Below are positions 5,501-19,961 of a stretch of DNA of 64,000 nucleotides, one piece after another. The notes under the pieces were generated by a model, which was not told the DNA's origin, did no database searches, and saw only the letters and a list, made by a program, of their open reading frames with translations. Numbering within the stretch: position 1 is the first letter of the stretch; every line of letters starts with the position of its first letter. The stretch comes from Akkermansiaceae bacterium. Its GTDB lineage: Bacteria; Verrucomicrobiota; Verrucomicrobiia; Verrucomicrobiales; Akkermansiaceae. The stretch covers positions 144,551 to 208,550 of the forward strand of contig JBPOGD010000006.1 of NCBI GenBank assembly GCA_051252195.1. The letters are read 5' to 3'. A program made the translations under genes and the position numbers.

Positions 5501-5748
5501 CCTCCTAACTCAAGCGCATAAATATAGACAGGAGAGGTAGCCGTCCCAGCAACATCGATATCGACATCCACATCACTATACACGCCCGATGTAAGCTCAA
5601 CAATATCCCCAGCAGAGAGATCTCCTAGCACCGACTCTAACTCGGCAGTACTACTCACTTGATAGACATCCGCATGAGTATTTGACGGAATAAGGAAGCC
5701 AAGAAACCATGCTATCGAGAGACATGTGTGAAGGGTTATGAATTTCAT
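2506..5748 (-). CDS. secreted right-handed parallel beta-helix polysaccharide-lyase-like protein with tandem Ig-like (GxLPxGxxxxxxGxLxGTP) repeats, a carbohydrate-binding-like module and a C-terminal Ca-binding-type D-rich segment
   Basis: N-terminal signal peptide MKFITLHTCLSIAWFLGFLIPSNTHA. Beta-helix hallmarks (NNTYRDCDGQMTMRHGDDCTIDGNFFFG, repeated N/G-rich rungs). Three to four repeats of ...SGxLPxGMTLSxxGVLAGxPTTAGTY.... A module TGTSFYQESNYVSIEAENFQ.... DANSDIDGDGLAELLEFALGGDP near the C-terminus. Confidence 0.7.
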   Translation of the reverse strand: MKFITLHTCLSIAWFLGFLIPSNTHADVYQVSSTAELESVLGDLSAGDIVELTSGVYSDVDVDIDVAGTATSPVYIYALELGGAKFEGATRIHVKGSHITIAGLSFDGNGGNGEKEGIIRLEANSTYCRVSNCQFKDFNEGIDDTNWLFIEGYNHRIDHNSFEGKSTYNATVFIKPNPSSEGDPETARNHLMEKNYFGTRDEIGVNGYESVRVADSTKQHYNMSCIVQSNLFYQAIKSDTGSEMEVISNKSRGNLYRNNTYRDCDGQMTMRHGDDCTIDGNFFFGTGGSRESGVRIIGRNHVVKNNYFESIGGSGLRSALVVMTGDNDWPSDDISNGYEAADGATIYNNTFVNCHQPINIGENKSDGVIPSGVEFSNNIVQSASGDGNIFDIQYSTSEIEFKNNIVYHAAGSYGNSGLAGVTYGTDPQLTSDESLGFHLPSSSSIAVDHVDIAESRLSSDISGRLRLAPYDAGCSEVNSTSTSFAAPLERDEVGPSFYGGPASSFTPPSGSTFPLVIQQRYFRDFEIGVGFSQTLVAAGGTGSKTWVLSSGILPDGMTLSLGGVLAGSPTTAGTYQFTITASAGGQSDSIFYHTSVVGEPSTQGGVLNVITTSLTPGIINTAYFESLTAAGGVAPYTWTINSGNLPAGITVSSEGTLAGTPSALGNSSFIIEVRDSAGESDLQLLSLVIGEEPPPEPLVVAGSLIPNGAVNQALTHTFTATGGEPSYSWSLESGNLPTGLTISSQGVLQGIPTAAGSFSFTLVVSDSLSQADSATFDLVIDEEAVASPITGTSFYQESNYVSIEAENFQTMTEVGGKSWQIVTLSGASGANTDNAIQALTNSGSSTTAGAGTYVTYSLNIATAGSYYVYVLGSGSDSSSDSIFAGTVADASNAAQINITANTWKQSGSTVDLAEGMNTLYLWMREPGCIIDKILIQTSSSSPSGLGSDESLLLTEFQTWKKDYHDDHLVDANSDIDGDGLAELLEFALGGDPTTVDAEIIKPVINKEGENLQFEFPRNSSLSSIRYIVEASDDLVIWPETLYDSEVDTLPNSADGMLMVLIQDAAKTRRFVRLRVEVLEP

Positions 5749-5940
5749 GAGAGGGGGTTTGAAATACGGTTATCGAATGCGCGCTTATCATGTCTGAAAA
5801 CAGTCCGTTCGATATGGATTTCAATATACTATTTCTTCACTATTGCCTATCAGATTCTCTGAGATAAACCTCAACAGCCAAGGCTTATTCATGACCATAA
5901 AAACTACTCGCCAGTGATAAGAGAGAACAGGCTACTCCTC

Positions 5941-6100
5941 GTTCATTTTCAACCACGGATAGCACGGATTTTCACGAATCGTTGCTTGGCTATTGAGTTC
6001 GTTTTCAACCACGGAAATGACGGAAGGCGCGGAAAGTAGAGCTGAAAGAAATTCACTATTCTACATTCACCATTCTCAATTCCACCACCAGTCTGTGATT
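5941..6100 (+). repeat. Copy C of intergenic repeat family (about 125 bp near-identical to copy A), includes CACGGAT-N-CACGGAT-N-CACGAAT direct repeats
   Basis: 5954-6072 is nearly identical to 7601-7718 with 2-3 mismatches. It flanks the triple-RidA gene on the side opposite copy A. Confidence 0.7.
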
Positions 6101-6157
6101 GGTGCGCTTTGACGTTAGATTTGTAGAGGAATATATACCATGGAAATAAAATGCCAG

Positions 6158-7393
6158 TTATACATGTGGAGGAGTGCCTTCACAGTTAGACACCACGGCA
6201 TCAATTTGCACCAAAGCATTCATAGGGATCGCTGAAACGCCGACGGTTGTCATCGCAGGAAGATCGCTGTTGAAAAATGTCGTGTAAACTTCGTTCACTG
6301 CATCAATATCTGCGACGTTCTTAAGCTGGATATTTATCTTAACGACATCATCAATCACGTGGTCGACGCTTTCTACAATGGCCTTAATATTATTGAGGCA
6401 TTGCTCGGCCTGCTCTTTGACACCACCTGCTACCATTTCACTTGTTGTTGGGTCTAGAGGCAATTGACCTGAAATGTGATTGTAATGAGAAAAAGCAACC
6501 GTGTGTGAGTAGTCAGCCTTAGGAGCATTTTCCGTATTACTTGCCTCTATGACGAGTAAGCTGGTGTCTTCAGGAAGTTGTGGGGGGGTGCCATCTCCAT
6601 GCGACACAGCAGTATCTATTTGCACCAGAGCATCCATAGGTAGAGCTGAAGCGTTGACGATTGTCCGCGCAGGAACATAGCTTGGGAAAAATTCTGCACA
6701 GACTTCGTTGACCGCGTCGATATCTGAGATGTTTTTGAGGAATATCGTGGTTTTAACCACATCGTCCATCACGTGATCGATACTTTCTAGAATTGCCTTA
6801 ATGTTGCTTAAGCACTGTTCAGTTTGTTCTTTGACACCACCCGCTATCAACTCACCCGTTGTTGGATCGATAGGTAATTGAGCTGAAAGATTATTGTAGT
6901 GAGAAAAAGCGACGGTCTGTGAGTAGAGACCTTTGGGTGCCTTTTTCGTGTTTCTGGAAACCTTGATGAGATCGCAGGGATCTTGTGGAGCGGTGCCTTC
7001 ACCGTTTGAAATAAGCGCATCAATTTGCACCAAAGCATCATCTAAAGGTAAGGCCGCAACTGCGACGATCGTCCGTGTAGGAAGCTCGCCGTTGAAAAAT
7101 GCTGTATAAACGGCGTCTACCGCGTCGATATCAGAGATGTTCTTGAGGAAGATCGTGATTTTAACAACATCGTCCATCACATGGTCGATACTTTCTACAA
7201 CGGCTTTGATATTTGCTAAGCACTGTCCAGCCTGCTCTTTGATTCCACCAGCTACCATCTCACCCGTTTTGGGATCGATAGGTAATTGAGCGGAAAGATT
7301 ATTGTAGTGAGAAAAAGCGACCGTTTGTGATGATACAGAACTTACTGGTGCATTCGCCGTGTTTCTTGAGTTTTTGATAATGTTGTCGCTCAT
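6158..7393 (-). CDS. triple-domain RidA/YjgF/TdcF (reactive intermediate deaminase) fusion protein, three tandem RidA domains in one chain
   Basis: The 411-aa protein is three units of about 137 aa, each with the RidA pattern ...YSQTVAFSHYNNLSAQLPIDPTTGELIAGGVKEQTEQCLSNIKAILESIDHVMDDVVKTTIFLKNISDIDAVNEV...PARTIVNASALPMDALVQID.... The DNA shows the matching three-fold periodicity of about 411 bp. Confidence 0.85.
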   Translation of the reverse strand: MSDNIIKNSRNTANAPVSSVSSQTVAFSHYNNLSAQLPIDPKTGEMVAGGIKEQAGQCLANIKAVVESIDHVMDDVVKITIFLKNISDIDAVDAVYTAFFNGELPTRTIVAVAALPLDDALVQIDALISNGEGTAPQDPCDLIKVSRNTKKAPKGLYSQTVAFSHYNNLSAQLPIDPTTGELIAGGVKEQTEQCLSNIKAILESIDHVMDDVVKTTIFLKNISDIDAVNEVCAEFFPSYVPARTIVNASALPMDALVQIDTAVSHGDGTPPQLPEDTSLLVIEASNTENAPKADYSHTVAFSHYNHISGQLPLDPTTSEMVAGGVKEQAEQCLNNIKAIVESVDHVIDDVVKINIQLKNVADIDAVNEVYTTFFNSDLPAMTTVGVSAIPMNALVQIDAVVSNCEGTPPHV

Positions 7394-7415
7394 ATTGATA
7401 TGTCTCGTGTCATAG

Positions 7416-7532
7416 CATGAAGCGCGCCAGAGTGAGATTGATAGGAACCTAGACCACTTTCTGACCGGAGCCAGTTACACCAAAGCACTTCTCTATCTTG
7501 AGACAGGGACACGGAAGTCGAGCGGGGAGTAA
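7416..7532 (+). pseudogene. 3'-terminal fragment, without start, of a gene homologous to the small ORF 10395..10643
   Basis: The plus-frame translation HEARQSEIDRNLDHFLTGASYTKALLYLETGTRKSSGE* aligns with the C-terminus HEAHRSEIDGNLDHFLTGASYQKALLYLKTGTRRPCGE* of ORF 10395..10643, and several differences are synonymous. There is a stop codon directly upstream at 7413-7415. Confidence 0.55.
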
Positions 7533-7960
7533 ACAGCTGCGACTGCTAGATATTTTTGACCACCCTCCTTTGCCGAGGCTTCGGTGGATAAACTGAATCG
7601 CACGGATTTTCACGAATCGTTGCTTGGCTATTGAGTTCGTTTTCAACCATGGAAATGACGGAAGGCATGGAAAGTAGAGCTGAAAGAAATTCACTATTCT
7701 ACATTCACACCATTCCACGAATCTATCCTCTCTATCCCAGCGGGGTAACATCTACTAGCTTGGGGTTACGCAACCCCAAGAAACCGATCCCTCAGAATCT
7801 GCATGCTAGAGGCATGCCATCAGCTCTTGGGAAGTTATGGGGTAAATCGGGAGACCGCTTTGGCTATGACGCTTGGCTAGGCCCCCCCACATATCACTTA
7901 GATGCCACTCCCTCAGGGGTGGGGGAATTGAGCTGGCGCGGGTCTCGGGGTGTTTAACCC
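7416..7960 (+). repeat. Copy A of composite repeat of about 550 bp (gene 3' fragment, CACGRAT direct repeats, hairpins, GCATGC-N5-GCATGC)
   Basis: Collinear similarity to 10565-11000 (copy B) and partial similarity to 5941-6100 (copy C). Hairpin cttggggtt-acg-aaccccaag at 7751-7772. Confidence 0.7.
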
Positions 7961-8130
7961 CGAGCTATCTGATGTTAGCCTTTCAGGGTAGGTGGTGTTG
8001 AAATGTTAAAGATCTATTCGTGATCTCTTTTTTGCGATTACGGAACCAAGAATCAAGGAGCGGCTCGCTTCACGACCTTTTTCTGGTTCATACTTGCATA
8101 AGAAGGGGGCGATAAAGGAGTCGATGAGGC

Positions 8131-8886
8131 TTATGAGATGAGGCGGGCTACGTAGATCCGGTGTTGGGCCTCTTCTGATTCTTCATGGGATTTTGCCGGG
8201 TGCTCGGTCAAATTGAAGCCGGCTTTTTTTAGTGCCATTTCAAGTTTAGGCGATGGGATGGCCATCCAGTAGGCTAGGCAGCCGCCGGGGTTGAGTGATT
8301 CCCGGAGTAATTTCATAAAACTTGGGGTGTAAAGATTGACATTGTCCTCAGTGATCACCGCGTCGGGCGTATCGTCGATATCGATCAAGATGGCATCATA
8401 AGTGTCGCCTTCTCCTAGGCAGTCGAAGAGATCGGCGAGAATGACGTTTGTTCTCGGGTCTTCTAGCAAGGGGCCATTATGCTCAACGAGATAAGTGCGG
8501 TTCCATTCGATGACTTGATTCATCAATTCCGCCACATCGACGGTGGCCGGAGAGCCAACCAATTCCAGAACTCGCTTCAGGGTGAATCCCATGCCCAGTC
8601 CTCCAATTAATACTCGCGGGTGCTCTGGCCGGTTCGTCGCCCCTTCCAGCAGATCGACACAGCCTAAATCAGCAAGCATCTGTTCGGAATATGTCAGGTT
8701 GGTGCTCATCAGCTCTAGCCCATTGTATTCGAGGATGAAATCTGAGCCCTCCTTATACAGGGCGAGCAGGTTGCCATCGGGCAGGCTGGCTTTGTCCAGC
8801 AGTGTGTAGGGCGTCATGGCCTCAAGTATCGATGAATTTGCTCCTTCGACAAGAGCATTGGTCGAGCCATTAAAATTTATCTTCAT
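8131..8886 (-). CDS. spermidine/spermine synthase-family (polyamine aminopropyltransferase-like) protein
   Basis: Motifs VLIGGLGMGFT...DAILIDIDD...GGCLAYW are typical of the PABS/class-I SAM-binding fold. I chose the start at ATG 8886 (MKINFNG...); the ORF track extends upstream to 8946. Confidence 0.65.
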   Translation of the reverse strand: MKINFNGSTNALVEGANSSILEAMTPYTLLDKASLPDGNLLALYKEGSDFILEYNGLELMSTNLTYSEQMLADLGCVDLLEGATNRPEHPRVLIGGLGMGFTLKRVLELVGSPATVDVAELMNQVIEWNRTYLVEHNGPLLEDPRTNVILADLFDCLGEGDTYDAILIDIDDTPDAVITEDNVNLYTPSFMKLLRESLNPGGCLAYWMAIPSPKLEMALKKAGFNLTEHPAKSHEESEEAQHRIYVARLIS

Positions 8887-9056
8887 AAGGAAAGGTGAGG
8901 GCTCGTATTTCCTCGCTGATTTCCTTAATACCATTGAGCACAGCAAAAGTGGTAAATAGCCGAGGTGAAGATAACTTTAGTACTCCAGATCGCTGTCCAG
9001 AAATATCCTTTATCCAGCCTTGCAGATCGGCAAATCTCTCTGACATTTCTACCGCC

Positions 9057-10229
9057 ATGTTTTTCCCTCCTAGTCGCTCAGCCGCTCTCGATCGCTTAGA
9101 GAAATTTCTGCCTCATGCTGCTAAATACGCGGGAACCAGGAATTTTGACCTCGGTTCTGAAAACCACAGCGGCGTCTCGCAGCTCTCGCCTTACATTCGC
9201 ACCCGCCTCATCACTGAGGAGGAAGTCACACGTGCTGTGCTGGAAAAACACAGCGCCAAAGCAGCTGAAAAATACCTTCAAGAAATCGCCTGGCGCACCT
9301 ACTGGAAAGGGTGGATGGAGTCTCGTCCCAGCGTCTGGGATCATTATACATCCAGCCTCGCTGAGCTCTCCCGCCTGACTCATCTGCCAGATTACACCCG
9401 AGCTGTATCAGCTCAGACTGGTATAGAGTGCTTTGACGCATGGGCCACTGAGCTGCGCGATACAGGCTACCTCCATAACCATGCCCGAATGTGGTTCGCC
9501 TCGATCTGGATCTTTACCCTCAGGCTACCATGGCAGCTAGGTGCTGATTTTTTCCTCCATCACCTCCTCGATGCAGATGCAGCCGCTAACACGCTCTCAT
9601 GGCGATGGGTCGCTGGCATTCACACCAAAGGGAAACACTATCTAGCTCGTGCATCAAACATCCAGAAATTCACCCACGGTCGCTTTGATCCCGAGGGATC
9701 GCTCGATGAGCAGGCCATGCCCATCACCGATGAGACAGAATTTGAAAAAGCACCACTTCGCCTACCTCAGAGAATCTCCCCACAAGGGAGAGTAGGTCAC
9801 CTCATGTTCTCCGATGACCTAGCACCTATTCCTGCAGAAAGTATGAAAGTAGCCGCCACCGCAGCCTTTATCCCACCACCATTATTGACATCACCTCTCG
9901 TCACCGAGTTCATTACAGGTGCAGTCTCCGATGCCCTAGAGCGCTCAGAGGGCACGCTCCTCAGTGGATCATTAACCAGTGCTGTTCAAGATTGGATCTT
10001 AGCAGAAAAATTAGACCACATCGTCATTTCCTACCCCACAGTGGGACCCACGAGAGAATTTTTAAAAACCCAGAGACTTTCTATCGAGCCCAATTACTTC
10101 CTCCGTGATTGGGATAGGCAGCTATGGCCACACGCGCATGCAGGATTTTTCAAGCTCAAGAAAGCTCTGCCAAAAATCTTTGCCTCACTCACTTACCCAC
10201 GGGCAGACGACCTTTTTCCTGACTTGTAG
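9057..10229 (+). CDS. photolyase/cryptochrome FAD-binding-domain protein lacking the N-terminal alpha/beta photolyase domain
   Basis: ALDRLEKFLPHAAKYAGTRNFDLGSENHSGVSQLSPYIRTRLITEEEV... and WRTYWKGWM match the start of the photolyase FAD-binding domain. I placed the start at ATG 9057; the upstream extension overlaps the converging gene. Confidence 0.65.
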   Translation: MFFPPSRSAALDRLEKFLPHAAKYAGTRNFDLGSENHSGVSQLSPYIRTRLITEEEVTRAVLEKHSAKAAEKYLQEIAWRTYWKGWMESRPSVWDHYTSSLAELSRLTHLPDYTRAVSAQTGIECFDAWATELRDTGYLHNHARMWFASIWIFTLRLPWQLGADFFLHHLLDADAAANTLSWRWVAGIHTKGKHYLARASNIQKFTHGRFDPEGSLDEQAMPITDETEFEKAPLRLPQRISPQGRVGHLMFSDDLAPIPAESMKVAATAAFIPPPLLTSPLVTEFITGAVSDALERSEGTLLSGSLTSAVQDWILAEKLDHIVISYPTVGPTREFLKTQRLSIEPNYFLRDWDRQLWPHAHAGFFKLKKALPKIFASLTYPRADDLFPDL

Positions 10230-10394
10230 TCAAAAAACCTGCCTGACACTTTGAATCTATAATAAAGCGAGAGAAGAAGGCGTCGCCATCCCAGCATTGT
10301 AGAATGCGAATTTTCAAAGGTATCGGCGTGTTTTTTGTTTGCGAATTCAGTTGCCCGAAGACCGTTTTCACGGAAAACTTTAGCACACACCATC

Positions 10395-10643
10395 ATGATG
10401 TTTTCTGATTTAGCCGATGCCCTCGAAGCCCGAATTGCTGTGATATCCGATCATGAATTCCGTGACAGGGATCCCGAAGCTCACCTCGAAGCCCTTATAA
10501 ATGCGAGCCAAGCGATCACTTCCTGGCACGAAGCGCACCGGAGTGAAATTGATGGGAACCTCGACCACTTTCTCACCGGCGCCAGTTACCAGAAGGCACT
10601 CCTCTATCTTAAGACAGGGACACGGCGGCCGTGCGGGGAGTAA
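10395..10643 (+). CDS. small hypothetical protein (82 aa) whose 3' end is part of the repeat family
   Basis: Its C-terminal 38 codons are conserved, with synonymous changes, in the fragment at 7416-7532. ATG at 10395. Confidence 0.45.
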   Translation: MMFSDLADALEARIAVISDHEFRDRDPEAHLEALINASQAITSWHEAHRSEIDGNLDHFLTGASYQKALLYLKTGTRRPCGE

Positions 10644-11000
10644 GACTCTGCAACTCACTAGGAGTTTTTGACGGAAAGGGCGTTTCACCTCTGTTTTTTA
10701 ATCAATGCCATACGCCTCGTTTTTTTGACCACGAATCGCACGAATTTTCACGAATCTTTGCTTGGCTACTGAGTTCATTTTGAACCACGGAAAGTATGGA
10801 AAGCACGGAAATGTCGAAAAGCTGAACCAAGAAAGCTGAACCATTCAGAACTCTTCGTATTTATCATTCTAAACTCACTCCACTCCACGCATTCACCCTC
10901 TTTATCCCAGAGGGATAACATCACCTAGCACGGGGTTGATACCCCGTGAATAGAAACCTCCCATAAAATAAAGCATGCCGGAGGTATGCCATCGAAAGAG
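10565..11000 (+). repeat. Copy B of composite repeat (includes the 3' end of ORF 10395..10643, CACGAAT x3 direct repeats at 10730-10756, hairpin 10911-10930)
   Basis: About 75-80% identity to copy A over about 430 bp. Hairpin cacgggg-ttgata-ccccgtg replaces the copy-A hairpin at the same relative position. Confidence 0.7.
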
Positions 11001-11088
11001 CCTAAATGTTGGTTTTGCCAATTTCAAGAATCGAGAACTACCTCCTTTCTGCTTACGCGAAATGATGCACATGCCTGCCCCCTTTTAG

Positions 11089-12330
11089 TTACTCCTCGAA
11101 AATACTAATCGCTTGTAGACTTTCGGAATCATACTCGACTTCGCCGCCTTTGAGTTCCTGGTTGAGGATTCCTTCGAATAGAGGTTTTTTCCAATAATCT
11201 GGAGTTTTCACGGTGGAGACTCCCGGTGAGAGGCTAAAGCCCGGCTTATCTTTTGGGCGTGGATCATGATCCTCCGGCCAGACACCAAAGAATGCTTGGC
11301 CTACCTTCCATCTGAAATAGCCACGTCCACCAGGTTCAACCACGGTCATTGCCTCACCCACAAACTGCCACTCAATGCTTAGACCAACGCTTGCTGTTTT
11401 GCTCATGCTCATGATTCTCATGTCGCGTGTTGCCTTGTCCACTGCGGCATGAATGTAGTCGTCCCTGAGTTTCTCTCCAGCTTTCGAAGCGGGAAATAAA
11501 TCACCCGCTGGAATGAGTTCAGGCCTGCTTAGCATCTTTTTCCCCATGGTTTTGGCTAAAATAGCAAACCTCTCTTTCGCAACCTTGGACATACGTTTCT
11601 TTTGAAATGCACCAATGACTGCCTGCCTACCGGTATCACTAAACTGCGCCTTGGCGGGGCTTGGCTTAGCTTTTTTAGATTGCTGAACCTGTTTATGCAG
11701 GATGAGTGCCTCTTTCATGGCCTCTAAAGTCGCTGCAGGTGACTGCAAGGCAGGTAAAATATCCATGACCACACCATCGATATCACAGAAGTAGATGGCG
11801 ATTTCTCCACTGATCGATCCTTTAAAGCTTCTACCCTCGCCTAAATTAAACGTCACCGTCTTCACATCTGCCACACTTTCCCATACGGGCACGAAATCTT
11901 CCTTCAGCATTTTGGTAACCCGACTATCGGAGAACGTCACGGTTCTCGCTAATTTGCCATTGGCTCAGCAAAACTCCTCATCCAGCTTACCAAACAAATG
12001 CAGCATCAGGATCGGTTTCCCCGTCGCTTTTGATTCTTCGATGGCCTCGGCGAGTGAACGTTTCCAGATGACATCCGTCTGTGATCCCCACTGCCCTGTG
12101 ATTCTTCCCAATGCCGTGCGAGCTCTGGCTTTTAATCGAGGATCTTCAGCTCCAGCCCATTTTCTCAGTTTCGGTAGCATGACTTTTCCTTGGCTCACAC
12201 ATGAATCGATGCCCCCGCTAGCGATGCTCTTATCAGCACTCATGAGAGCTTGTTGCACCTTGTCCTCAGCGCAGAAGCTGGGACTCCATGTTCCTGCTAA
12301 TACCAACATCATACAGATTTTATTTTTCAT
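11089..12330 (-). CDS. secreted thioredoxin-fold (DUF255-like) protein interrupted by a single in-frame TGA at 11965-11967; candidate selenoprotein, otherwise a nonsense pseudogene
   Basis: ORFs 11965..12330 and 11089..11940 are in the same frame and only the TGA separates them. Read through, the sequence is ...KPILMLHLFGKLDEEFC-TGA-ANGKLARTVTFSDSRVTKMLKEDFVPVWESV.... That places the stop at the thioredoxin-fold active-site position, between strand beta1 and helix alpha1. A 6-bp hairpin, GAGAAC-CGUGAC-GUUCUC in the RNA, starts 18 nt after the UGA. Confidence 0.5.
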
Positions 12331-12445
12331 ACTTACAAGACTAACATGAATTAAACATATGTATGTAAAGGGTTTGTAAAAAAACTGAAAGTTAGAAAAA
12401 GGAAGATAAATGGCTCATCAAACAGTGGCGACATAAAAGGTCTGT

Positions 12446-12513
12446 CCCTTAGTTCAATCGTCCCTTAGTGCAATCCCTTAGTGCAATCCCTTAGTGCAAT
12501 CCCTTAGTGCATT
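12446..12513. repeat. tandem array of about five 13-bp units (cccttagtgcaat)
   Basis: Direct read: cccttagttcaat cgt cccttagtgcaat x3 cccttagtgcatt. It lies about 120-185 bp upstream of the 12330 start on the minus strand. Confidence 0.85.
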
Positions 12514-12527
12514 CAGGGAGACTGCTT

Positions 12528-12863
12528 TTATTCGGTATATGATTTAGATAGGTTTCTCGTAATGATATACACCTTTCCATCTTCAAATAAAGCGAGGTAT
12601 GGAGTATAGAACCCATACATTCCTATCCTGTTCTTAGCTCGCACATCATAAGTCATTAAATATTGCATGCCTCTACTTCTTTCGCGAAGCTTTGGCCCAG
12701 TCACATTTTTATATTCAGCACTTTTACTATTAACAAGATGATCATCCATCGCGACCTTGATTTGAGCTAAGCCTTCTTTGGGTAATGGCTGTGGTTGCGC
12801 TAATGGATCTACGCATGAAGCTAGTAATATTAAAGGAAGGATGAGTAATGTTTTTAAGTGCAT
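12528..12863 (-). CDS. hypothetical lipoprotein (signal peptide then Cys)
   Basis: MHLKTLLILPLILLASC... is a lipobox-like N-terminus; no family assignment. Confidence 0.45.
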   Translation of the reverse strand: MHLKTLLILPLILLASCVDPLAQPQPLPKEGLAQIKVAMDDHLVNSKSAEYKNVTGPKLRERSRGMQYLMTYDVRAKNRIGMYGFYTPYLALFEDGKVYIITRNLSKSYTE

Positions 12864-12920
12864 TTTAATAAAGGGATGAAGGTTGAGCCTGTTAATGAAT
12901 GGGAATACTATGACTAAAAG

Positions 12921-13020
12921 GGGTCAGGAAGGTGAATTACTCATTAGTGTGGTTACTGGCTTGATATTTTTTGAGTATTTTGCGCTCCTTGGTCAAGGCT
13001 CGGGAGTCGCACTCAGTTTG
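12921..13020 (+). repeat. 100-bp dispersed repeat, copy 1 (second copy at 20961-21062)
   Basis: gggtcagg..ctcattag..ggtt..tgat..ttgagt..cgctcc..caaggctc..agtcgcactcagt is shared with the second copy at about 80% identity. It is non-coding, and indels break the reading frames. Confidence 0.7.
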
Positions 13021-13479
13021 GAATAACTGCTCGGTATCTGAGTCTTTGAAGGAGTGAATCATGGGGAAGGTTGTTGTAAATCAATGCCTGACACCTTTAC
13101 GCAAGGATGATACGGAAACGCTTAGAGAGAGATTGCTGGAGGGGATTATTTCGCAAAATTATAGCTGGTTGAGTTTATCATTCAGTAAACTTGGGTACCA
13201 TTTACACAAGAGCAAATCGAAATAAGATCGTCATCAAATGGTGTCAGGCATGAATGCCCATGATAATAGCAATGCATGTTAAAGATTGCGATATCTTAGC
13301 TGAAATGAAAATGACAGCTATGTTAATCTAGGGAATGTAATTGCTAACTAAGGTTAGCTCAGAGCATTTTCTCGAAAGAGCTAGTGGACGTTGACGGCAC
13401 TCGATTAGCTAAGACAAAAAAACCCACCATTGATTAACAATGGCAGGGACATAAAAATAAACATAATGGGTGATATGGG

Positions 13480-13947
13480 CTATTTCTTCATCATCTCCTC
13501 CTTTTTCATCATTTCATTTTCTTTCATGATGAGCGCTTTCCACTCTCCATCTGCTTTAGCGATGTGTGATGCTGTGTCTTTAGTGAATAGTTTGCCGACT
13601 TTTGCGTTTTTGTTGAGGTAGAGCTTTCCTTCTACTACTGTGAATACTGTAGGGTCGGAAGGGATCTTCTTACCAAAAGACATGCCGTAGGCGCAGTATC
13701 CATCATATTGTGGAAGGAACTTCTTTGGTGCTGCGTTAAATGCTTTTAGTGCGTCTTCACTGACGAATAGGTAAGTTTTACCATTATATTCAGCTTTAAA
13801 TTCTTCCGTTCCTTTGGCTGCTACGTTGCTAGCGATGTAACAAACAGGGCAATAGCCATCGAGTGCTGGAGCTTCCGCTGCAATGGATGTAAAAGTGGAG
13901 AGTAGAGCTGTAGCCGCAACGACGAATAATGATTTAAGGAATTTCAT
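13480..13947 (-). CDS. secreted YHS/TRASH-domain protein (two YHS-like CxxC/Y-rich modules)
   Basis: Signal peptide MKFLKSLFVVAATALLSTFTSIAA. Repeated GYCPVCY..GK..Y.F.S.DA...F and DGYCAYGM..GKK modules. Confidence 0.65.
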   Translation of the reverse strand: MKFLKSLFVVAATALLSTFTSIAAEAPALDGYCPVCYIASNVAAKGTEEFKAEYNGKTYLFVSEDALKAFNAAPKKFLPQYDGYCAYGMSFGKKIPSDPTVFTVVEGKLYLNKNAKVGKLFTKDTASHIAKADGEWKALIMKENEMMKKEEMMKK

Positions 13948-14461
13948 AATAGTTAGTAATGGTTAATAAGAAGCAGTGGCTTCTTGTTCATTAGAGTGAA
14001 GAGTTAGAATTATATTCCTGTAACTCGTAAAAATTAATTGTTTCTATGAATATTAAACAGCCTTGAGGGGCGGGGAGTAACTGTAAATCCGTAGGAATTC
14101 AGCAAACTAAAGATTTGAAATGGACGGCAAGTTTGCATGTTAATTCGGGTCAGGCATACATTGGCATCATATCACCTATCTAAAATCGAATTGATTACGC
14201 AAAATGATGCAAATCAATTCCTGAACTCTTTTGTGACCCCTTTTTGGTCTTTTGGGTGCCCCCTTTTGTAAGTATTGAAATACCTACCCTTTTTTAAAAC
14301 TTATACCAATGAAGTTAAGTTACTGGTAGAAACCGCACAGAGATTTTAGTCTGTATCAAGGCGGACGATTATTGTGATGCCAAAGCATCTCAATAAATTG
14401 ACAACGATCATATCGGCAAAAAGATCAAGTGGGTTTTACCGGTTAATTAAGTGAGTTGGTA

Positions 14462-14839
14462 TTAGACAGCATGTTTCTTCAGGTCCTCTAAATCAACAAA
14501 CTCCAGAGCCATCACCGAGGTAGCTGCTAGGTTGACCTTAGGGGCGCAGCCCTGATCGAAGGCTTCCTTCCAGCGAAGGAGGCAGAGGCACCATGAGTCG
14601 CCAGGCTTAAGACCTGGGAAGGAATACTCAGGCCTGGGTGTGATGAGGTCGTTACCCTGGCTACGACTGAAGTTGAGAAACTCCTCGGTAAGGACGGTGC
14701 AGACACAGTGAAGTCCGTGGTCGCCACCTCCTGTGCGACATGAGCCATCGCGGAAGAACCCAGTGATGGGATCGAGGGAGCAAACAGCAAGGGCTTCACC
14801 GAGGACGTTAAGATTAGGCATGGTCTGATGATAGTGCAT
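14462..14839 (-). CDS. DUF2237-family protein
   Basis: NVLGEALAVCSLDPITGFFRDGSCRTGGGDHGLHCVCTVLTEEFLNFSRSQGNDLITP...FPGLKPGDSWCLC matches the conserved DUF2237 pattern. Confidence 0.65.
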   Translation of the reverse strand: MHYHQTMPNLNVLGEALAVCSLDPITGFFRDGSCRTGGGDHGLHCVCTVLTEEFLNFSRSQGNDLITPRPEYSFPGLKPGDSWCLCLLRWKEAFDQGCAPKVNLAATSVMALEFVDLEDLKKHAV

Positions 14840-15011
14840 GGATGAAAACCTGACAAGCGAGAGCTTGCAGTGTTGCCTTGTTCACGAAGAGTCTTACTGT
14901 GTGGCAAGGACTGTGTGGCACTGTGTGGCGAGAAGTATGATGAAATACGTCTGTCACTTTGCAGTATGCCAGAATCATCTATTATCCTTAGAAACTTTAT
15001 CCTCAGAAGCT

Positions 15012-16298
15012 ATGAGTAACTCTAACCAGACCCCGCTGCCCGTGCTCATTGTAGGAGCTGGATTAAGTGGTCTTACTTGCGCCGTGCGTCTCCATGAGGC
15101 CGGTATTCCTGTGCGCCTCATCGAGGCCAGTGATGGAGTCGGCGGGCGTGTCCGCACCGATCGTATGCAGGGCTTTCTACTAGACCGTGGTTTCCAAGTC
15201 TACCTCAGTGCCTATCCTCAAGCTGGTAAACTACTCGATACAGAAGCTCTCCAGCTCAAGTCCTTTGAACCTGGGGCACTTGTTTTTGATGGGCTGAATC
15301 TGAATCGTGTGATGGATGTCTTCAGAAGGCCGAAATATCTTGTCAGCAGCGCTCTTTCATCGATAGGCGGGCTAGCAGATAAGGTGAGGGTGGCACTGCT
15401 AAGGTTCCAGACCTTGGGCAGTTCAGAAAAAGAAATCAACAGCCGCGAAGACCAATCTACAGAGAGTTTCCTGAGAGGATTCGGTTTCAGTGAAAAAATG
15501 ATCGATGGTTTTTTCAGATGTTTCTACGGAGGCATTTTTCTTGAAACCTCACTGCGCACTTCCAGCCGTATGTTCCAGTTTACCTTCAAGATGTTCACTG
15601 CTGGTAGCGCTACCCTGCCTGCCTATGGAATGGGTAGCATCCCACTGCAGCTTTCAAGTAGACTGCCGCCAGAGACCATCCGATTTAACTCTCCTGTCAC
15701 AGCCGTGACGAGTTCCTCCGTGAACCTTGCCAATGGGAGCATTCTCCAAGGAAGCCATGTAGTCATCGCCACTCATGCGCCACAGACGAGCCTTTTAATT
15801 CCAAGTTTTAACTCACGTGCGCCTCAATGGCGATCCGTGACGAATGTGTATTTCGCTGCACCTAAGTCGCCACTCAATGAGGCGATTATCGCTCTGAATG
15901 GCAGTGGTAAGGGGCTGATTAATAACGTCTGTGTGCCTTCTGACGTCAGCCCTCACTATGCCCCAGCGGGCCAGTCCCTCATCTCTGTTTCCCTGCTAGG
16001 TATACACAAGGACGAGAGTATTCCCGCTCAAGTGAAAACTGAACTCATCGAATGGTTTGGCAGTGATACGGATCGCTGGACGCACCTCAGAACAGACATC
16101 ATTAAACATGCCCTCCCAGAGCAACTTCCCGAGAGTGATTTACAAAACCATCAAGATGCCAACAAGGGATTTCTTGAAATAGACGGCATGATGATTTGTG
16201 GCGATCACACCACCAGCGCATCCATCGAAGGGGCGATCATTTCTGGAAATCAAACAGCGGCCGCACTACTCAAGTCGATGGGGTTAAAAAACACCTAG
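15012..16298 (+). CDS. FAD-dependent amine oxidase/phytoene-desaturase-superfamily oxidoreductase
   Basis: N-terminal dinucleotide-binding motif PVLIVGAGLSGLTCAVRLHEAGIPVRLIEASDGVGGRVRTD. I placed the start at ATG 15012 (MSNSNQTPLPVLIVGAG). Confidence 0.8.
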   Translation: MSNSNQTPLPVLIVGAGLSGLTCAVRLHEAGIPVRLIEASDGVGGRVRTDRMQGFLLDRGFQVYLSAYPQAGKLLDTEALQLKSFEPGALVFDGLNLNRVMDVFRRPKYLVSSALSSIGGLADKVRVALLRFQTLGSSEKEINSREDQSTESFLRGFGFSEKMIDGFFRCFYGGIFLETSLRTSSRMFQFTFKMFTAGSATLPAYGMGSIPLQLSSRLPPETIRFNSPVTAVTSSSVNLANGSILQGSHVVIATHAPQTSLLIPSFNSRAPQWRSVTNVYFAAPKSPLNEAIIALNGSGKGLINNVCVPSDVSPHYAPAGQSLISVSLLGIHKDESIPAQVKTELIEWFGSDTDRWTHLRTDIIKHALPEQLPESDLQNHQDANKGFLEIDGMMICGDHTTSASIEGAIISGNQTAAALLKSMGLKNT

Positions 16299-16588
16299 CC
16301 AGAGAATGCGATAAGGCATTGATCTGTGAGAATACTTATCACAACGAGGTCAAACCACATCAAATGATACAAATCAATTCCTGCCCCCCTTAACCCAATG
16401 TTTTAATGTGAAACCCAGTAAGGAAAGGCGTCGCTCTTTTCATGAAAAAGGCTAAAAAACCCAGTGTTTTTTAACAGGCTCAAATCACTTGATTTGCGGC
16501 TTAACTTAGTGCCATTCATGCCTGACTCCTTTACTTTTTCTTTATGAGCTTTAGAGCCAGCTTTTGTGGTATTTAATAGGTAGATCAA

Positions 16589-16840
16589 TTACTCCGTTGG
16601 AGACTGCTCACCGTGTTTCTGTTGCCGGTGATCACGGTCTCGATTTCTCTGATCCCTGTCATCGTTCGCATTACCTGGTTTACCTTTCTTTGCCAAGTTT
16701 GCATCTCGCTCGTCTAACTCTCTTTGCAATTTATCCTGTGCGTTTTTACCAGGCTGCACTGGACCAGGGACCTTTCCAATGAAGCCGCCACTAACGTTTA
16801 AATCTGGAGACTCATCATTTTTATGTGTTTTATCAGACAT
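16589..16840 (-). CDS. small highly charged hypothetical protein (83 aa)
   Basis: ORF only. It sits between short repeat motifs and is low-complexity K/D/R-rich. Confidence 0.25.
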   Translation of the reverse strand: MSDKTHKNDESPDLNVSGGFIGKVPGPVQPGKNAQDKLQRELDERDANLAKKGKPGNANDDRDQRNRDRDHRQQKHGEQSPTE

Positions 16841-17124
16841 ATGGGTAAGATGTAAAATTCAGATTTTAATGTCAATTTCGAATACGACAAAACATCCACT
16901 AGTCAGGGCGCTTGTTTCAATGCCGCCTCAAGTTCTGTAAACGCAATTTCAGCATACAAATCAATTCCTGACGAAGCCACGTGGCGTTTTTGAGCAGATG
17001 GTTCATAAATCAAATTACAGAAAAATGGCTTAAAGACGTGCCATTCATTCCTGCCCCCTTTTACATTCAGGATCTCCCCCTTTTTGCCTTTTTGATTTTT
17101 TTGCGTTAAACTTCGATTGATTGT

Positions 17125-18885
17125 TTATAAGAGGTTGATTTCCAGTATTTCAGCGAGATTAGTTTTCAGCGTTTTACGCCGCTCACTCCAGAATGTCTCA
17201 AAGTCGCCAAACTCAAGGCTGGTATTCAAGCCGATATGATTTGCTGTTAAGTAAGCATCTTTAGTCTCTTGAGTGACATACTTATCAGCTACCCATTCAG
17301 TAAATTTCTTTCCGCTTTTAGATTGGTTCGCGCTTTTTTCAAGGAGCTGTAAATTGGGCAGTGTATCTCTCTTAGCTATCCACGTTTGTTGAGCGTCCCC
17401 ATCTAGCCCTAATGTGTTCAGATTAGATTTATAGAAGGCTTTTTTAGGATGTATGTGATCTTGATGAAAGTGCATTTGGCTGAATCTGCACCCAGAATAG
17501 AGAAGCGATAATACTAAGAACGTTCCCCCTCCTGAGGTCTCATGATCTAAGAAGTTATCTAGATCATCTTCATTAAGCGATATGGAACGACCACTCGGTA
17601 ATTTGCAGTGTTTTGCAAAGTCGGTCACTGTGAATTCATTTGATTCGGGAAGGCTCTTTTTCAAGTAAGACCGTATGTCAATGAGGGTTTGATCACTATG
17701 TGAGCCAAACAGCCCAGTCATAAGTGCTCTTATAAGATATAGTCTGAGACTTTCTTTAGAACGGTTTATATCGAAACCCAAGTGATGTGCGTATACGATA
17801 AGTATTACGGCATTTGCAGAAGTTAGTTTAGATGCGTCAAATCCCCAATCTACGAGTAGAACCACTGTGTCGGTTATGCTTTCTGTGATTTTTTGCCAAT
17901 TTGATTTGATTGTTTCAACATTAGCTGCGCCAAAGGCAGATACGTTCAGCTTACTGCCGAAATCACATAATATGAGGCAGCTCCTCATGATCCAGTCAGT
18001 CCCAAAGTTGAACCCATCTCCTAGAGAATTAATATCTGCTAGGAAGTTCTCGATTTTCTCTCTGCCATCATCCCAGTGGGCTACGATAGTAGAAAAAAGA
18101 AGGTCTGTTTTAGAGAGCACCTTACCGCCACTATTGACTCGCACAAAAATATCTAAAATCTCATCGAGACTTTGATTTTTAACGGGGAAGTAGTTGATGA
18201 GCTCTTCTGTGGTTAGACGATTATAGAGTCGGTTTAGTAATCGCTTAGCCTTTCTATTTTGATCATGTGTAATCTCGAAGTTTTGAGGGATGTTCTTCAG
18301 GAAGTTTTCCCATAGATCCTCTACATGATCTGATTCACCAGCTGTTAATACCTCTTTAACTGGAAACCAGCACTCAGGCTCGTTGAACCTCTGCGGGCTG
18401 ACGTCACCCTCTGTTTTAAAAGCGAACTGGTATTCTACCTGGTCATATTCTGCGGCTTCAAAAAAAACGTTCACGTAGAAGAGTCTCTTAGGATAGGATT
18501 CCCTGCGGTTCCTGCGCCTTCCTTTGGTGTGGTAGGCGTAAGACCCCTGAAGCGCTACATACATTGAGTTAAGTCTCTGCTGACCATCTAGCACTCCAGT
18601 AATGTTGCCTTCTAAAATTGGTTGAGGGGCAATTTCGTTTTTCCAGTTATCGTATCCGCTGAAGTTTTGTAAGAATTTATAGAAAACATAGTTGTTTTCT
18701 GTTCCGTCATCGACTTCCCAGAAGAGGAATGTCCCTATGGGGTAGCCTCTCATGATGGAGTCAAAAAGTTTTTCAATTTGGTCCGCATTCCAAACGAACT
18801 TACGCTGGAGGGCTGGCAGGAAAATTTTGTCCTGACCAATATTGATCATGACATCTTTGATAGTTTTAGCTGAATAAGCGGGCAT
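17125..18885 (-). CDS. GmrSD-family type IV (modification-dependent) restriction endonuclease, DUF262 + DUF1524
   Basis: N-terminal DUF262 with the DGQQR motif (VLDGQQRLNSMYVALQG). C-terminal His-Me finger of DUF1524 (MHFHQDHIHPKKAF). Confidence 0.85.
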   Translation of the reverse strand: MPAYSAKTIKDVMINIGQDKIFLPALQRKFVWNADQIEKLFDSIMRGYPIGTFLFWEVDDGTENNYVFYKFLQNFSGYDNWKNEIAPQPILEGNITGVLDGQQRLNSMYVALQGSYAYHTKGRRRNRRESYPKRLFYVNVFFEAAEYDQVEYQFAFKTEGDVSPQRFNEPECWFPVKEVLTAGESDHVEDLWENFLKNIPQNFEITHDQNRKAKRLLNRLYNRLTTEELINYFPVKNQSLDEILDIFVRVNSGGKVLSKTDLLFSTIVAHWDDGREKIENFLADINSLGDGFNFGTDWIMRSCLILCDFGSKLNVSAFGAANVETIKSNWQKITESITDTVVLLVDWGFDASKLTSANAVILIVYAHHLGFDINRSKESLRLYLIRALMTGLFGSHSDQTLIDIRSYLKKSLPESNEFTVTDFAKHCKLPSGRSISLNEDDLDNFLDHETSGGGTFLVLSLLYSGCRFSQMHFHQDHIHPKKAFYKSNLNTLGLDGDAQQTWIAKRDTLPNLQLLEKSANQSKSGKKFTEWVADKYVTQETKDAYLTANHIGLNTSLEFGDFETFWSERRKTLKTNLAEILEINLL

Positions 18886-19022
18886 AGTTTTTTAGTGTTA
18901 AATTGTTTATTCCACAGCGTCACCGAGGGCTTGTCAGATTTCAAAATAAAAGATCTGTCCTTTTTTTCATTTCTATTCTTACCCCCTTATGCCGTAAGAA
19001 CGAGAGCCTTTTTCAGGATCGA

Positions 19023-19961
19023 CTAAATAGTTAAATCAACTCCTAATTTAGTATGAAGATGATTTTTTAATATCTTCATTGTCTTAGTCATTAAATTCGA
19101 TTCCTTTTTTAATGTATGACAAGCATAGGCCGATGGGGCAGTCGTTCTATTTCGTATATTTTTAATTTGAACAAGTTCAGTTTTGGAAGCTGAAAGAGAG
19201 GCCGTGATCATGGCCTTTTCAATTAGTCTAAGACGAAAATAGGAACCATCTGATTGCTTTGTTAATGAGTCGAAAGCCTCAGAGATAATAGCTGATCTAG
19301 AAGCTACATTAATTGAGCAGTTAATTGAAAAAGCCCTAGAAATACATTCGCTAACTTGACGTAACTCATCCAAACTTAGTGAAGGTTGTTTAGAACCTTT
19401 TCGATAAAGACTTTTTCCAACCCTGAGCTTAAATAGGTTTTGCTCATCATGCCCCTCAATTAATCCTCTGCGAACAAGCTCATCTATAATGTCTGTAAGA
19501 CTAAACTTGTACACGCCGAGATCAGCTAGAAAAGGGATTGCCATCGTTCTAAATGCGACAAATAGGGCGTCGTTAGCCCACCTGATACCTTCTGCGCAAT
19601 CTGGTGTTTTGTGGAGAAGTGTTGTTAGCCTATATCCGTCCCAAAATTCTTTCTGATAAGAATCCCGTATCTGAAAAGATTTATATAGTAATTGTAATTT
19701 ACCACTGGGATCTGAAAACACTACTGATTCTTCGATTAAATGTTTAATAAACAGAGAGCCAGTCTGCGTTAAATATTCGAGCTTCTTCCAAGTATATGTG
19801 GAACAAGAATAGCCCCTTCTTGTGAAGGTATATTCATTTTCTTGTAGCAAATCTACATCATCTGATACGATCAGAAGATCACGATCACTATGCACGTCAG
19901 TGTCTGTTCGGGCTAGGGACCCAAAAACCGCCATGGATAAGTCTGTATTGGCTCGTTTCAT
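19023..19961 (-). CDS. Pol-beta-superfamily nucleotidyltransferase-domain protein (312 aa)
   Basis: N-terminal NTase motif AVFGSLARTDTDVHSDRDLLIV (the GS...D.D catalytic signature), then a helical region of about 200 aa. It overlaps the upstream gene by 4 nt. Confidence 0.65.
   Translation of the reverse strand: MKRANTDLSMAVFGSLARTDTDVHSDRDLLIVSDDVDLLQENEYTFTRRGYSCSTYTWKKLEYLTQTGSLFIKHLIEESVVFSDPSGKLQLLYKSFQIRDSYQKEFWDGYRLTTLLHKTPDCAEGIRWANDALFVAFRTMAIPFLADLGVYKFSLTDIIDELVRRGLIEGHDEQNLFKLRVGKSLYRKGSKQPSLSLDELRQVSECISRAFSINCSINVASRSAIISEAFDSLTKQSDGSYFRLRLIEKAMITASLSASKTELVQIKNIRNRTTAPSAYACHTLKKESNLMTKTMKILKNHLHTKLGVDLTI

Follow-up and report, generated by a model that had tools for sequence, protein, structure and literature searches.

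What is the repeat that recurs between positions 7416 and 11000 of this Akkermansiaceae contig: one composite unit, a gene cassette, the structured 3' end of a gene, or an assemblage of smaller elements? Most of what is known of marine Akkermansiaceae comes from MAGs, and a literature search limited to the array sequence described below plus "Verrucomicrobia" found no paper on their repeat content. The present analysis covers a stretch of 64 kb (the window) and ~7 kb to its left, on a contig with a total of 293 kb. An initial annotation described a composite repeat of about 550 bp in three copies. The repeat is real and far beyond chance, but it is not a single composite unit: it is a mosaic, because its modules also occur alone. 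The patchwork consists of the 3' remnant of a small gene, a core module built from CACGRAT motifs, and a tail module of three hairpins. Taken as a whole, it is best explained, with better than even probability, as a mosaic of a gene remnant and REP/BIME/BOX-like modules, in which the three pieces are unrelated to one another and which arose by an old duplication followed by truncation.

Copies A (7410-7822) and B (10521-10994) align collinearly with 72-84% identity and have in common the last 37 codons of an 82-aa gene, the ~140-nt core, and the ~95-nt tail. Their collinearity spans only ~415 nt in A and ~475 nt in B, short of the length first given; beyond 7822, A shares nothing with B and holds an inverted fourth tail copy, F (7901-7995). 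The three copies originally listed (A, B, and C) all exist but form an incomplete list. The proposed check for further copies, run within the window, located core D and tails E and F, which brings the tails to four (A, B, E, and F) and the cores to three, besides a degenerate one. Core and tail are combined in A and B, the core stands alone in C and D, and the tail stands alone in E and F. Protein-level searches with the spurious ORFs found no further copies; the antisense ORFs, suspected to be artefacts of the repeat, indeed have no Pfam match and are located on repeat DNA or opposite a real gene. The four tails are spread over no more than 14 kb, so that they may be of local rather than genome-wide origin. 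A single segmental duplication and nothing more, with the hairpins and motifs as incidental passengers of the gene, would fit the collinearity of A and B, which includes spacers outside any module. It is contradicted by copies C, E, and F, which exist without the gene fragment, and it also sits badly with a core in another MAG, with arrays in many other contigs, and with the preservation of all three hairpins by compensatory changes; we give it almost no credence.

The gene whose end is repeated is intact at 10395-10643 (+) and encodes an all-helical protein of 82 aa without a known family. Pfam and NCBIfam scans gave no match, and the product (AF2 pLDDT 92) matched nothing in the PDB, whether by sequence or by fold. 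It is nevertheless a genuine gene, as its 84 homologues in marine Akkermansiaceae/Verrucomicrobiales indicate. A second copy is represented by a start-less 3' remnant at 7410-7532 (+) comprising codons 46-82, with its stop at 7530-7532, which is probably a pseudogene piece of this conserved helical-protein gene. The remnant is in frame at 7419-7532 with neither a frameshift nor a premature stop; the fragment reported as the last 38 codons thus does recur in frame, but its extent is 37 codons plus the stop. Its nucleotide identity to 10521-10646 is 81-84%, and the repeat search aligned 7410-7544 with 10521-10655 at 81%. The coding changes had been called mostly synonymous or conservative, a description at odds with the count of 6 synonymous and 8 non-synonymous differences in 37 codons. 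At the LYLETG motif the remnant keeps the family-consensus E, while the intact copy (B) has K. In 33 distinct contexts, conservation of the small gene begins 60 nt before its start and goes no further than the stop codon. Core and tail are both missing at 80 loci with homologues of the small gene; the composite is therefore not a conserved 3'UTR of this gene, which removes the 3'-UTR-borne layout proposed earlier in that sense.

The core is a module of ~140 nt with a canonical triple array, TTT-RAC-[CACGRAT-N2-3]x3, followed by a TTGCTTGG spacer and a degenerate ACGGAA x3 array. Core A occupies 7576-7713 (+; nhmmer E=8e-44) and core B 10710-10859 (+; E=3e-42), where the canonical array reads tttttttGAC-CACGAAT-CG-CACGAAT-TTT-CACGAAT (10730-10755). 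Core C, at 5932-6075 (+; E=4e-47), has the core module only and is bordered by a triple RidA gene (3' end) on one side and a 1080-aa gene (5' end) on the other; its array is CCACGGAT-AG-CACGGAT-TTT-CACGAAT (5953-5979), and the TTGCTTGG spacer and the degenerate ACGGAA x3 (~6009-6036) follow. Core A is 72-79% identical to core B and 86-90% identical to core C, with 96% identity to the latter over 112 nt in the repeat search (5959-6070 vs 7597-7708). The degenerate, core-like array D (30408-30506, +; nhmmer E=0.006) abuts and overlaps the 3' end of a GxxExxY/PDDEXK_3 gene at 30486-30872 (-; PF13366, E=4e-40; TIGR04256), and an inverted array unit (~30929-30976) lies on the other side of this gene. 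A 32-nt core pattern has 3 matches in the window vs 0 expected. The CACGRAT direct repeats noted at the outset are borne out by 28 sites, clustered, against 13.9 expected. No array in this window precedes a co-oriented gene. Logan assemblies break within the cores, at 5991 in the case of core C.

The tail, ~95 nt long, is made of three short hairpins. H1 is TATCCC-AGN-GGGATA; H2 is a GC-rich stem of variable sequence (8-9 bp, loop 4-6 nt) that forms a 20-22-nt imperfect palindrome directly preceded by [C/A]TAG-C, with CTAG in A and B and ATAG in E and F; H3 is GCATGCC-NGA-GGYATGC, followed by CATC. Tail A (7728-7821, +; nhmmer E=1e-24) contains H1 at 7733-7747, the linker ACATCTACTAG, H2 at 7759-7780, H3 at 7801-7817, and CATC. 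Tail B (10898-10993, +; CM 95.8 bits, fold z=-4.2) has H1 at 10903-10917, H2 at 10929-10948, H3 at 10973-10989, and CATC. Tail E is found at 21334-21429 (-; nhmmer E=5e-12 and 4e-20, CM 88.7 bits), and tail F at 7901-7995 (-; nhmmer E=8e-20, pattern match, CM 84.6 bits), inverted with respect to A. Identities among the four copies range from 61 to 80% (B/E 77-80%, A/B 72-80%). The initial annotation had recognized a variable hairpin with covariation, and both the hairpin and its compensatory changes exist, although at 7759-7780 and 10929-10948 and not at 7751-7772 and 10911-10930. The conserved GCATGC-N5-GYATGC element it described occurs twice against 0.02 expected and is itself the third conserved hairpin. 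When the pairing test was extended to the additional copies, E and F were found to keep all three hairpins, in F with different stem sequences.

All four tails keep the three hairpins through compensatory changes. Pairing is retained in 96.4% of the cells (81/84, sense strand) vs ~40% when the 3' partner is slid. Both sides have changed in 6 of 21 pairs, against 2.7 in shuffles, of which 3/500 reach 6, and the covariation score is 0.381 vs 0.168, a value that 0/500 shuffles reach, for four sequences aligned by hand to the structure. The antisense strand pairs in 78/84 cells by our own count, vs 81/84 for the sense strand.

Each of the four tails follows a gene on its 3' side and reads in sense to it; for three of the tails, the genes on either side are convergent. 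Tail F is 136 nt downstream of, and in sense to, a SpeE-like gene (8131-8946, -). Tail E begins 25 nt past the stop of a HEPN_RiboL-PSP gene (21454-22008, -), again in sense, and upstream of HigA (21060-21263, -). Together with G-U wobbles on the sense strand, sense-strand fold z-scores that are better in three of the four tails, and conserved loops and linkers (ACATC-NNN-TAG, NGA loops, CATC), this placement would suit a family of structured 3'UTR RNAs that act in cis, such as processed small RNAs or regulatory/stability elements, and not mobile DNA. To judge from the sequence, such a family is unlikely. Rfam gave no match at gathering thresholds over the window and none relevant even at E<=5 over 5800-11200, and ARAGORN detected no tRNA or tmRNA. 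The modules are absent not only after the homologues of the small gene but also downstream of the two SpeE-like homologues checked; moreover, the small gene, the SpeE-like gene, and the HEPN gene are unrelated, so no common regulatory logic is visible. Canonical intrinsic terminators resemble the tails in having a GC-rich hairpin (H2) downstream of genes, but they differ in their U-tract: no T-rich tract follows H1, H2, or H3 in any tail copy, and a terminator scan of 5700-11200 detected no intrinsic terminator at tails A, B, and F. Canonical hairpin-plus-U terminators are enriched elsewhere in the window (37 vs 20). Under the mosaic reading, the tail would most likely act as co-transcribed 3' stem-loops, as RNA or as one DNA strand, that are tolerated or useful at gene ends, for instance in mRNA 3'-end protection.

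The layout had also been likened to gene cassettes. In an integron-like or other cassette organisation the tails would be attC-like sites that close cassettes, and they do resemble attC as structured, sequence-variable elements, each placed in sense at the 3' end of one of four genes, with structure more conserved than sequence; a low-GC 12-22 kb block with accessory/defence-type genes adjoins. Among 40 window ORFs scanned with Pfam or NCBIfam (coordinates 161-54260), however, there was no integrase, recombinase, or transposase, and the tail ends have no R''/R' core sites (GTTRRRY / RYYYAAC). In place of the single long imperfect, bulged hairpin of attC there are three separate hairpins with stems of 6-9 bp. 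The genes are not co-oriented: those that have a tail lie on both strands. In the 5.7-22 kb region, the majority of genes are without one. The composite is not a gene-cassette system: an integron is contradicted by the features tested (integrase among the ORFs at 161-54260, attC, and gene co-orientation), and a cassette organisation of any kind is highly improbable.

The composite does resemble known bacterial intergenic repeats. One end of a REP stem-loop is marked by a conserved tetranucleotide, GTAG (or CGTC), and REPs with the GTAG tag have been reported from the PVC group, a verrucomicrobium among them (PMC3733652). Like the REP/BIME/REPIN elements of Proteobacteria, the tails are short extragenic stem-loops whose stem adjoins a conserved tag; they are set in a mosaic with other short motifs, with an occasional inverted doublet, and lie behind genes and where two genes converge, in a genome with a RAYT-like gene. 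H2 in itself is an imperfect extragenic palindrome within the 20-40 nt typical of REPs, and four of four copies are intergenic. The tails, and especially H2 with its NTAG tag, might accordingly be REP-like single-strand hairpins mobilised by a RAYT (Y1) transposase, with A and F as a REPIN-like inverted doublet. These two tails, the one inverted pair among the four copies within 64 kb plus ~7 kb, can form one long imperfect palindrome when folded together (-49.2 kcal/mol, z=-2.25), and a RAYT-like Y1 transposase domain, with an HVH motif and a YDH tyrosine visible, is encoded ~7 kb left of the window. The domain, however, scores 76.3 bits against the cut-off of 80 for NF047646, is embedded in frame inside metH, and has no tail-like hairpins beside it. 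The unit of ~95 nt with three hairpins departs from a single palindrome; the CTAG/ATAG + C before H2 is similar but not identical to the canonical GTAG, and is not CGTC; the H2 stems differ and covary among copies, whereas amplifying REP populations are typically near-identical; and ~160 nt between the H2 hairpins of A and F is long for a REPIN. Mobilisation by a RAYT thus seems a minor possibility, and should the tails be substrates of the RAYT-like domain, its location inside metH would make it an unusual partner.

BOX (boxA-boxB-boxC of Streptococcus pneumoniae) and ERIC-type repeats are modular and intergenic, with ~50-150 nt per module; the modules occur in varied combinations, form predicted stable stem-loops, and are co-transcribed with neighbouring genes. 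Core and tail are likewise short intergenic modules in differing combinations, as in BIME and BOX elements. They differ in that there is no sequence relationship, the phylum is another one, and one module is a phased 7-mer array and not a palindrome. The features cited for a layout "more than simple REP" in fact fit mosaic REP/BIME/BOX-type intergenic repeats well, and modules of this kind are probably the best reading.

The history of the locus can be reconstructed in outline. A and B would be one diverged duplication, because their homology is collinear through gene end, spacer, core, linker, and tail, and because the remnant shows mixed synonymous and non-synonymous change without a frameshift or premature stop; what was duplicated long ago would be the small gene together with its downstream mosaic. 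Copy A would later have lost its 5' part, when a rearrangement put the triple RidA gene and core C beside it, likely by recombination or conversion between cores. The product of this gene (6158-7393, -) is a single chain in which the RidA domain occurs three times (Pfam Ribonuc_L-PSP x3, E=3.6e-77; TIGR00004 x3), and the gene contains internal 414/408-nt repeats. It is flanked by cores C and A in direct repeat, and ~17 nt separate its start codon from the left breakpoint of copy A. The modules themselves appear to be independent, because C is core-only, E and F are tail-only, and the tails of B and E are as alike as those of A and B; they may be non-autonomous elements of the REP/BIME/BOX kind that spread or persist separately. 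No terminal inverted repeats occur at the ends of core C, none are conserved around the tails, and no target-site duplication was seen on reading the flanks, which speaks against a MITE; mobility is accordingly no more than an inference. Marine Akkermansiaceae genomes thus carry modular, structure-conserving intergenic repeats that break assemblies, lead to spurious ORF calls (annotated ACSHX0_08680 is one), and indicate where gene order has changed.

The two modules differ in their distribution outside the window. The tail was found only in this organism, while a contig end of a different Akkermansiaceae MAG carries the core (L088, E=4e-11), and the array was seen also in contigs L100 and L053/L055. 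At least 120 IMG/VR viral-contig stretches contain the triple CACGRAT array, vs ~1 expected by our own estimate. To our knowledge, this array has no description. Its abundance in viral contigs and its bias to positions upstream of start codons, together with the lack of a known description, make it a concrete candidate for a host/phage regulatory signal, most likely a phased binding site (predicted) for a host or phage factor. A more far-reaching proposal holds that the array is a recognition signal common to Verrucomicrobia-type hosts and phages (a promoter/operator or start-associated element with a conserved factor) and the tail a new structured 3' element, the two being portable gene-start and gene-end modules; these would accompany accessory genes as they move and cause local rearrangements, the truncation of copy A among them. 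We regard this as unlikely. Mycobacteriophage start-associated sequences and stoperators are short conserved motifs in one orientation, with many copies per phage genome, often upstream of the RBS or start. The array alone shares with them a repeated short motif near starts in phage contigs; it differs as a triple direct repeat of another sequence that is common in bacterial chromosomes, occurs also as inverted pairs in other contigs, and in the window has no co-oriented gene after it. In the viral contigs the arrays mostly precede genes (28 vs 6), often just upstream of start codons, as exemplified by the Mu-like contig L103.

The repeat claimed in the initial annotation is borne out by a repeat search of the window, a three-way alignment, and motif counts beyond chance, and the repeat unit is a mosaic of modules. 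The repeat search pairs 7410-7544 with 10521-10655 at 81% identity, 5959-6070 with 7597-7708 at 96% identity, and 5959-6070 with 10735-10846 at 64% identity. In the alignment, copies A and B are collinear from the end of a small gene to the GCATGC element, and copy C (5932-6075) aligns with their central part only. What A and B share amounts to 7410-7822 (~415 nt) and 10521-10994 (~475 nt), less than the unit of ~550 bp first described. A 32-nt pattern of the core, the module that carries the CACGRAT arrays, has three matches in the window with none expected, CACGRAT sites number 28 versus 13.9 expected and are clustered, and the GCATGC-N5-GYATGC element occurs twice versus 0.02 expected. Copies A, B, and C of the initial annotation stand, but its list was incomplete, and the search for further copies that it suggested was productive within the window. 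An HMM trained on the A and B tails, the hairpin-bearing module, recovers tails E (21334-21429, minus strand) and F (7901-7995, minus strand), and a degenerate core-like array, D, at 30408-30506 abuts a GxxExxY/PDDEXK_3 gene. A degenerate 32-nt tail pattern has exactly four sites in the window, the four tails, with none expected, and a four-sequence HMM scores these tails at E=1e-24 to 8e-20, the next best window match being 0.57.

The two modules also occur apart: tails E and F are without core and gene fragment, and copy C is a core lacking a tail. Pairwise tail identity is 61-80%, and B is as similar to E as to A. The A/B homology extends through spacers outside any module, which argues for one old duplication of a region already holding both modules; the view that a single duplication is all there is to the repeat is contradicted by the features tested. 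The stretch of genome read is ~71 kb, and copy counts and putative mobility refer to that stretch. The 7 kb added to the left of the window holds no further tail or core copy, an exact search with the tail pattern across 185,579 species genomes and IMG/VR yields nothing, and seven of the eight matches to the core pattern in the genome collection are judged chance from their sequence context. Three protein searches with spurious ORFs bring up nothing beyond the locus and one unrelated array ORF. ACSHX0_08680 (7649-7957, plus strand), an NCBI hypothetical protein of 102 aa, is read wholly from core, tail, and spacer DNA, and a search of 1.84 billion representative proteins gives no homologue; the gene call is therefore almost certainly spurious.

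The tail is ~95 nt long. A pyrimidine-rich lead-in is followed by hairpin H1 (TATCCC-AGN-GGGATA; 6-bp stem, 3-nt loop), a linker ACATC-NNN-TAG, and hairpin H2, whose GC-rich stem of 8-9 bp closes a loop of 4-6 nt. A spacer of 20-24 nt then leads to H3 (GCATGCC-NGA-GGYATGC; 7-bp stem, NGA loop), and the module ends in CATC or AATC. The GCATGC-N5-GYATGC motif was rightly recognized as a conserved element in the initial annotation, which missed that the element is itself a hairpin; the variable hairpin that it described lies at 7759-7780 and 10929-10948 rather than at the positions first assigned. MAFFT alignments of the tails put the 3' arm of H2 out of register, and an N-padded structure-register alignment was used instead. 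In this alignment of four tails, which is fitted to the structure and biases pair counts towards it, 96.4% of 84 cells are paired versus 30-46% with the 3' partner slid, 6 of 21 pairs are changed on both sides versus 2.7 in shuffles (3 of 500 shuffles reach 6), and the covariation score is 0.381 versus 0.168, a value reached by none of 500 shuffles. These figures uphold the earlier claim of pairing retained under changed sequence. Extra copies lacking that pairing had been named as the counter-evidence, and copy F keeps H1, H2, and H3 with stem sequences that are largely different.

All four G-U or U-G wobbles fall on the sense strand, and fold z-scores are better for the sense strand in three of the four tail copies, which hints that the tail functions on that strand. 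No Rfam or tRNA match is found. A tRNA-like T-arm in copy E (GGTTCGAAT) was dismissed, being absent from the other copies and unseen by ARAGORN, and a sequence-free triple-hairpin descriptor proved too unspecific for searching (18 matches versus ~9 in shuffles).

Every tail follows a gene in sense orientation. Tail A follows the small-gene remnant, tail B follows the small gene, tail F lies 136 nt after a SpeE-like gene (8131-8946, minus strand), and tail E lies 25 nt after an HEPN_RiboL-PSP gene (21454-22008, minus strand). Tails A and F face each other with convergent genes on either side and can be folded as one long imperfect palindrome (-49.2 kcal/mol, z=-2.25). None of the tail hairpins is followed by a U-tract, while canonical hairpin-plus-U terminators are used in the same genome (37 versus 20 expected in 30-50 kb); thus, the tails are not ordinary intrinsic terminators. 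Given this placement, the tail might be read as a purely RNA-level 3'UTR element, which we regard as quite improbable. We favor, with moderate confidence, the reading that core and tail are both non-autonomous intergenic repeats of the REP/BIME/BOX kind. In that case the tail, a set of three stem-loops at gene 3' ends, would persist by doing no harm or by being of slight use, for instance in protecting an mRNA 3' end, and the array of the core would be a putative phased binding site.

A low-GC block at 12000-22700 (40-42% versus ~48%) carries defence or accessory genes, namely GmrSD_N, NTP_transf_2, pentapeptide-repeat proteins, HigA, and HEPN_RiboL-PSP. At 12461-12512, between genes, a 13-nt unit, TCCCTTAGTGCAA, is repeated perfectly in tandem about four times. 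A 56-nt direct repeat (12967-13022 and 21009-21064, 80% identity), the second copy of which directly adjoins HigA (21060-21263, minus strand) at its 3' end, may represent toxin-gene remnants.

A specific REP-RAYT mechanism seems unlikely. In its favor are the NTAG tag of H2, the report of GTAG-type REPs in the PVC group (PMC3733652), and a RAYT-like domain encoded in the same genome. The tag, the unit size, and the divergence of the copies fit this mechanism poorly, and no hairpins flank the RAYT-like domain. The domain is an in-frame insert of ~170-200 aa in a methionine synthase, MetH (1490 aa; 6536-11008, minus strand, of L096, the contig that extends to the left). The insert (~7094-7591 of L096) lies inside the activation domain, ~7 kb left of the window start. 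Its similarity is to a REP-associated tyrosine transposase (NF047646, 76 bits with a cut-off of 80; Y1_Tnp, E=7e-9); the insert sequence includes an HVH motif and a YDH tyrosine, and at 40% GC it lies below the remainder of the gene (49%). A cassette or attC organization, suggested by the resemblance to gene cassettes seen in the initial annotation, is contradicted by the features tested, including the check for a nearby integrase: no integrase or transposase is present among the 40 window ORFs scanned (161-54260). The repeat is lineage-restricted and of a bacterial repeat kind already known, and it is accompanied by a pseudogene remnant.

The intact small gene (10395-10643, plus strand) has 84 homologues, mostly of exactly 82 aa, which come from marine samples and are named Akkermansiaceae, Verrucomicrobiales, or Roseibacillus. 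The protein belongs to no Pfam or NCBIfam family and has no PDB relative by sequence or by fold; its AlphaFold model (pLDDT 92) is all-helical with five helices. In a comparison of 33 distinct contexts, sequence is conserved only between a point 60 nt before the start codon and the stop codon, and the flanks are unrelated, with several gene neighborhoods among marine Akkermansiaceae. Across loci L003-L082, window 10333-10650, the gene with its 60-nt leader, stands out as a sharply bounded conserved block. The homologues encoded at 80 metagenomic loci are 41-88% identical. BLAST, nhmmer, and regex searches find neither core nor tail at these loci, the single exception being L053/L055, where a weak core-like array lies 3 kb from the homologue; a tail covariance model run on 45 of the 80 loci gives no match either. 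A conserved 3'UTR of the small gene is ruled out by these 80 loci, which lack both modules.

The remnant in copy A (7419-7532) is in frame, keeps its stop codon, and holds the family-consensus E at a site where B has K. It therefore stems from an older second gene copy rather than from recent copying of B. Its differences from B, previously described as mostly synonymous or conservative, comprise 6 synonymous and 8 non-synonymous changes in 37 codons. A recurrent site-specific (attB-like) breakpoint in the small gene was rejected: homologue P0080 is an intact gene with a wrongly called start, and P0084 is a separate, degenerate pseudogene. The A/B layout is echoed in a related metagenomic contig, L019, where the small-gene 3' end with ~110 nt downstream occurs twice, nearly identical (1-190 and 896-1085; 96% identity over 28 aligned codons), with a minus-strand ORF between. 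Because the contig begins with the first of these copies, that copy may or may not be a fragment.

A triple RidA gene and the small-gene remnant are bracketed by cores C and A, which form a direct repeat at a distance of 1,638 bp and share 96% identity over 112 nt. About 17 nt separate the left breakpoint of A from the RidA start codon, and the core 5' end is kept in C as in B and has diverged in A. On the simplest account, recombination or conversion between cores would have brought in the RidA gene and cost the second small-gene copy its 5' part. Short-read assemblies of this population are interrupted within the cores, with the end of L096 at 5991 and the beginning of L001 at 7679, as expected of near-identical repeats. 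The bracketed gene (6158-7393, minus strand) encodes one polypeptide with three tandem RidA/L-PSP domains, its internal repeats of 414/408 nt being 64-73% identical, and its product is in effect a covalently fused equivalent of the usual RidA trimer. The HEPN_RiboL-PSP gene, 14 kb from it, likewise adjoins a tail copy.

The core is ~140 nt long, has no terminal inverted repeats, and consists of a canonical array, TTTT..(G/C)AAC-CACGRAT-NN-CACGRAT-TTT-CACGAAT, a spacer containing TTGCTTGG, and a second, degenerate array of ACGGAA units with a 9-nt period. Its whole architecture recurs at the contig end of another Akkermansiaceae MAG (L088, E=4e-11). The triple array TTT-RAC-[CACGRAT-N2-3]x3 (window 5953-5979 and 10729-10755) is found without the rest of the core at L053/L055 and L100, and in at least 120 IMG/VR stretches (L101-L183 among them), where ~1 is expected by chance according to our own calculation. 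It is widespread, and no description of it was found; a literature search returned no paper pairing the array sequence with 'Verrucomicrobia'. We consider it the most interesting lead of this work. Among 103 non-tandem arrays, exactly three units are the rule, the units stand 2-3 nt apart, and TTT-R-A-C is the consensus upstream of them. An RBS-like motif and start codon follow within 40 nt in 28 arrays in sense versus 6 in antisense orientation (94 scorable arrays), and 12 of these 94 have an inverted partner within 90 nt, giving a hairpin with a ~27-bp stem. In L103, a Mu-like early region with GemA, a MuB-like AAA_22 protein, and HTH_17, eight arrays are sense-oriented and most span from a stop codon to the RBS of the next gene. 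In contrast to the viral contigs, none of the window arrays precedes a co-oriented gene.

Three other readings of the array were set aside. A CsrA-type GGA sponge is at odds with the R of CACGRAT, which is A in all units of copy B and in 41 of the 103 arrays. On inspection of the consensus, an ECF/sigma-70 promoter suffers from unfit AAC...CGT spacing and a poor -10 match. A link to GxxExxY or RAYT genes fails in that tblastn finds no homologue of either in 84 viral/array loci. Within the window, at 30408-30976, the GxxExxY/PDDEXK_3 gene (30486-30872, minus strand) sits between inverted ACCACGGAT-type array units, and its final codons are encoded by the array.
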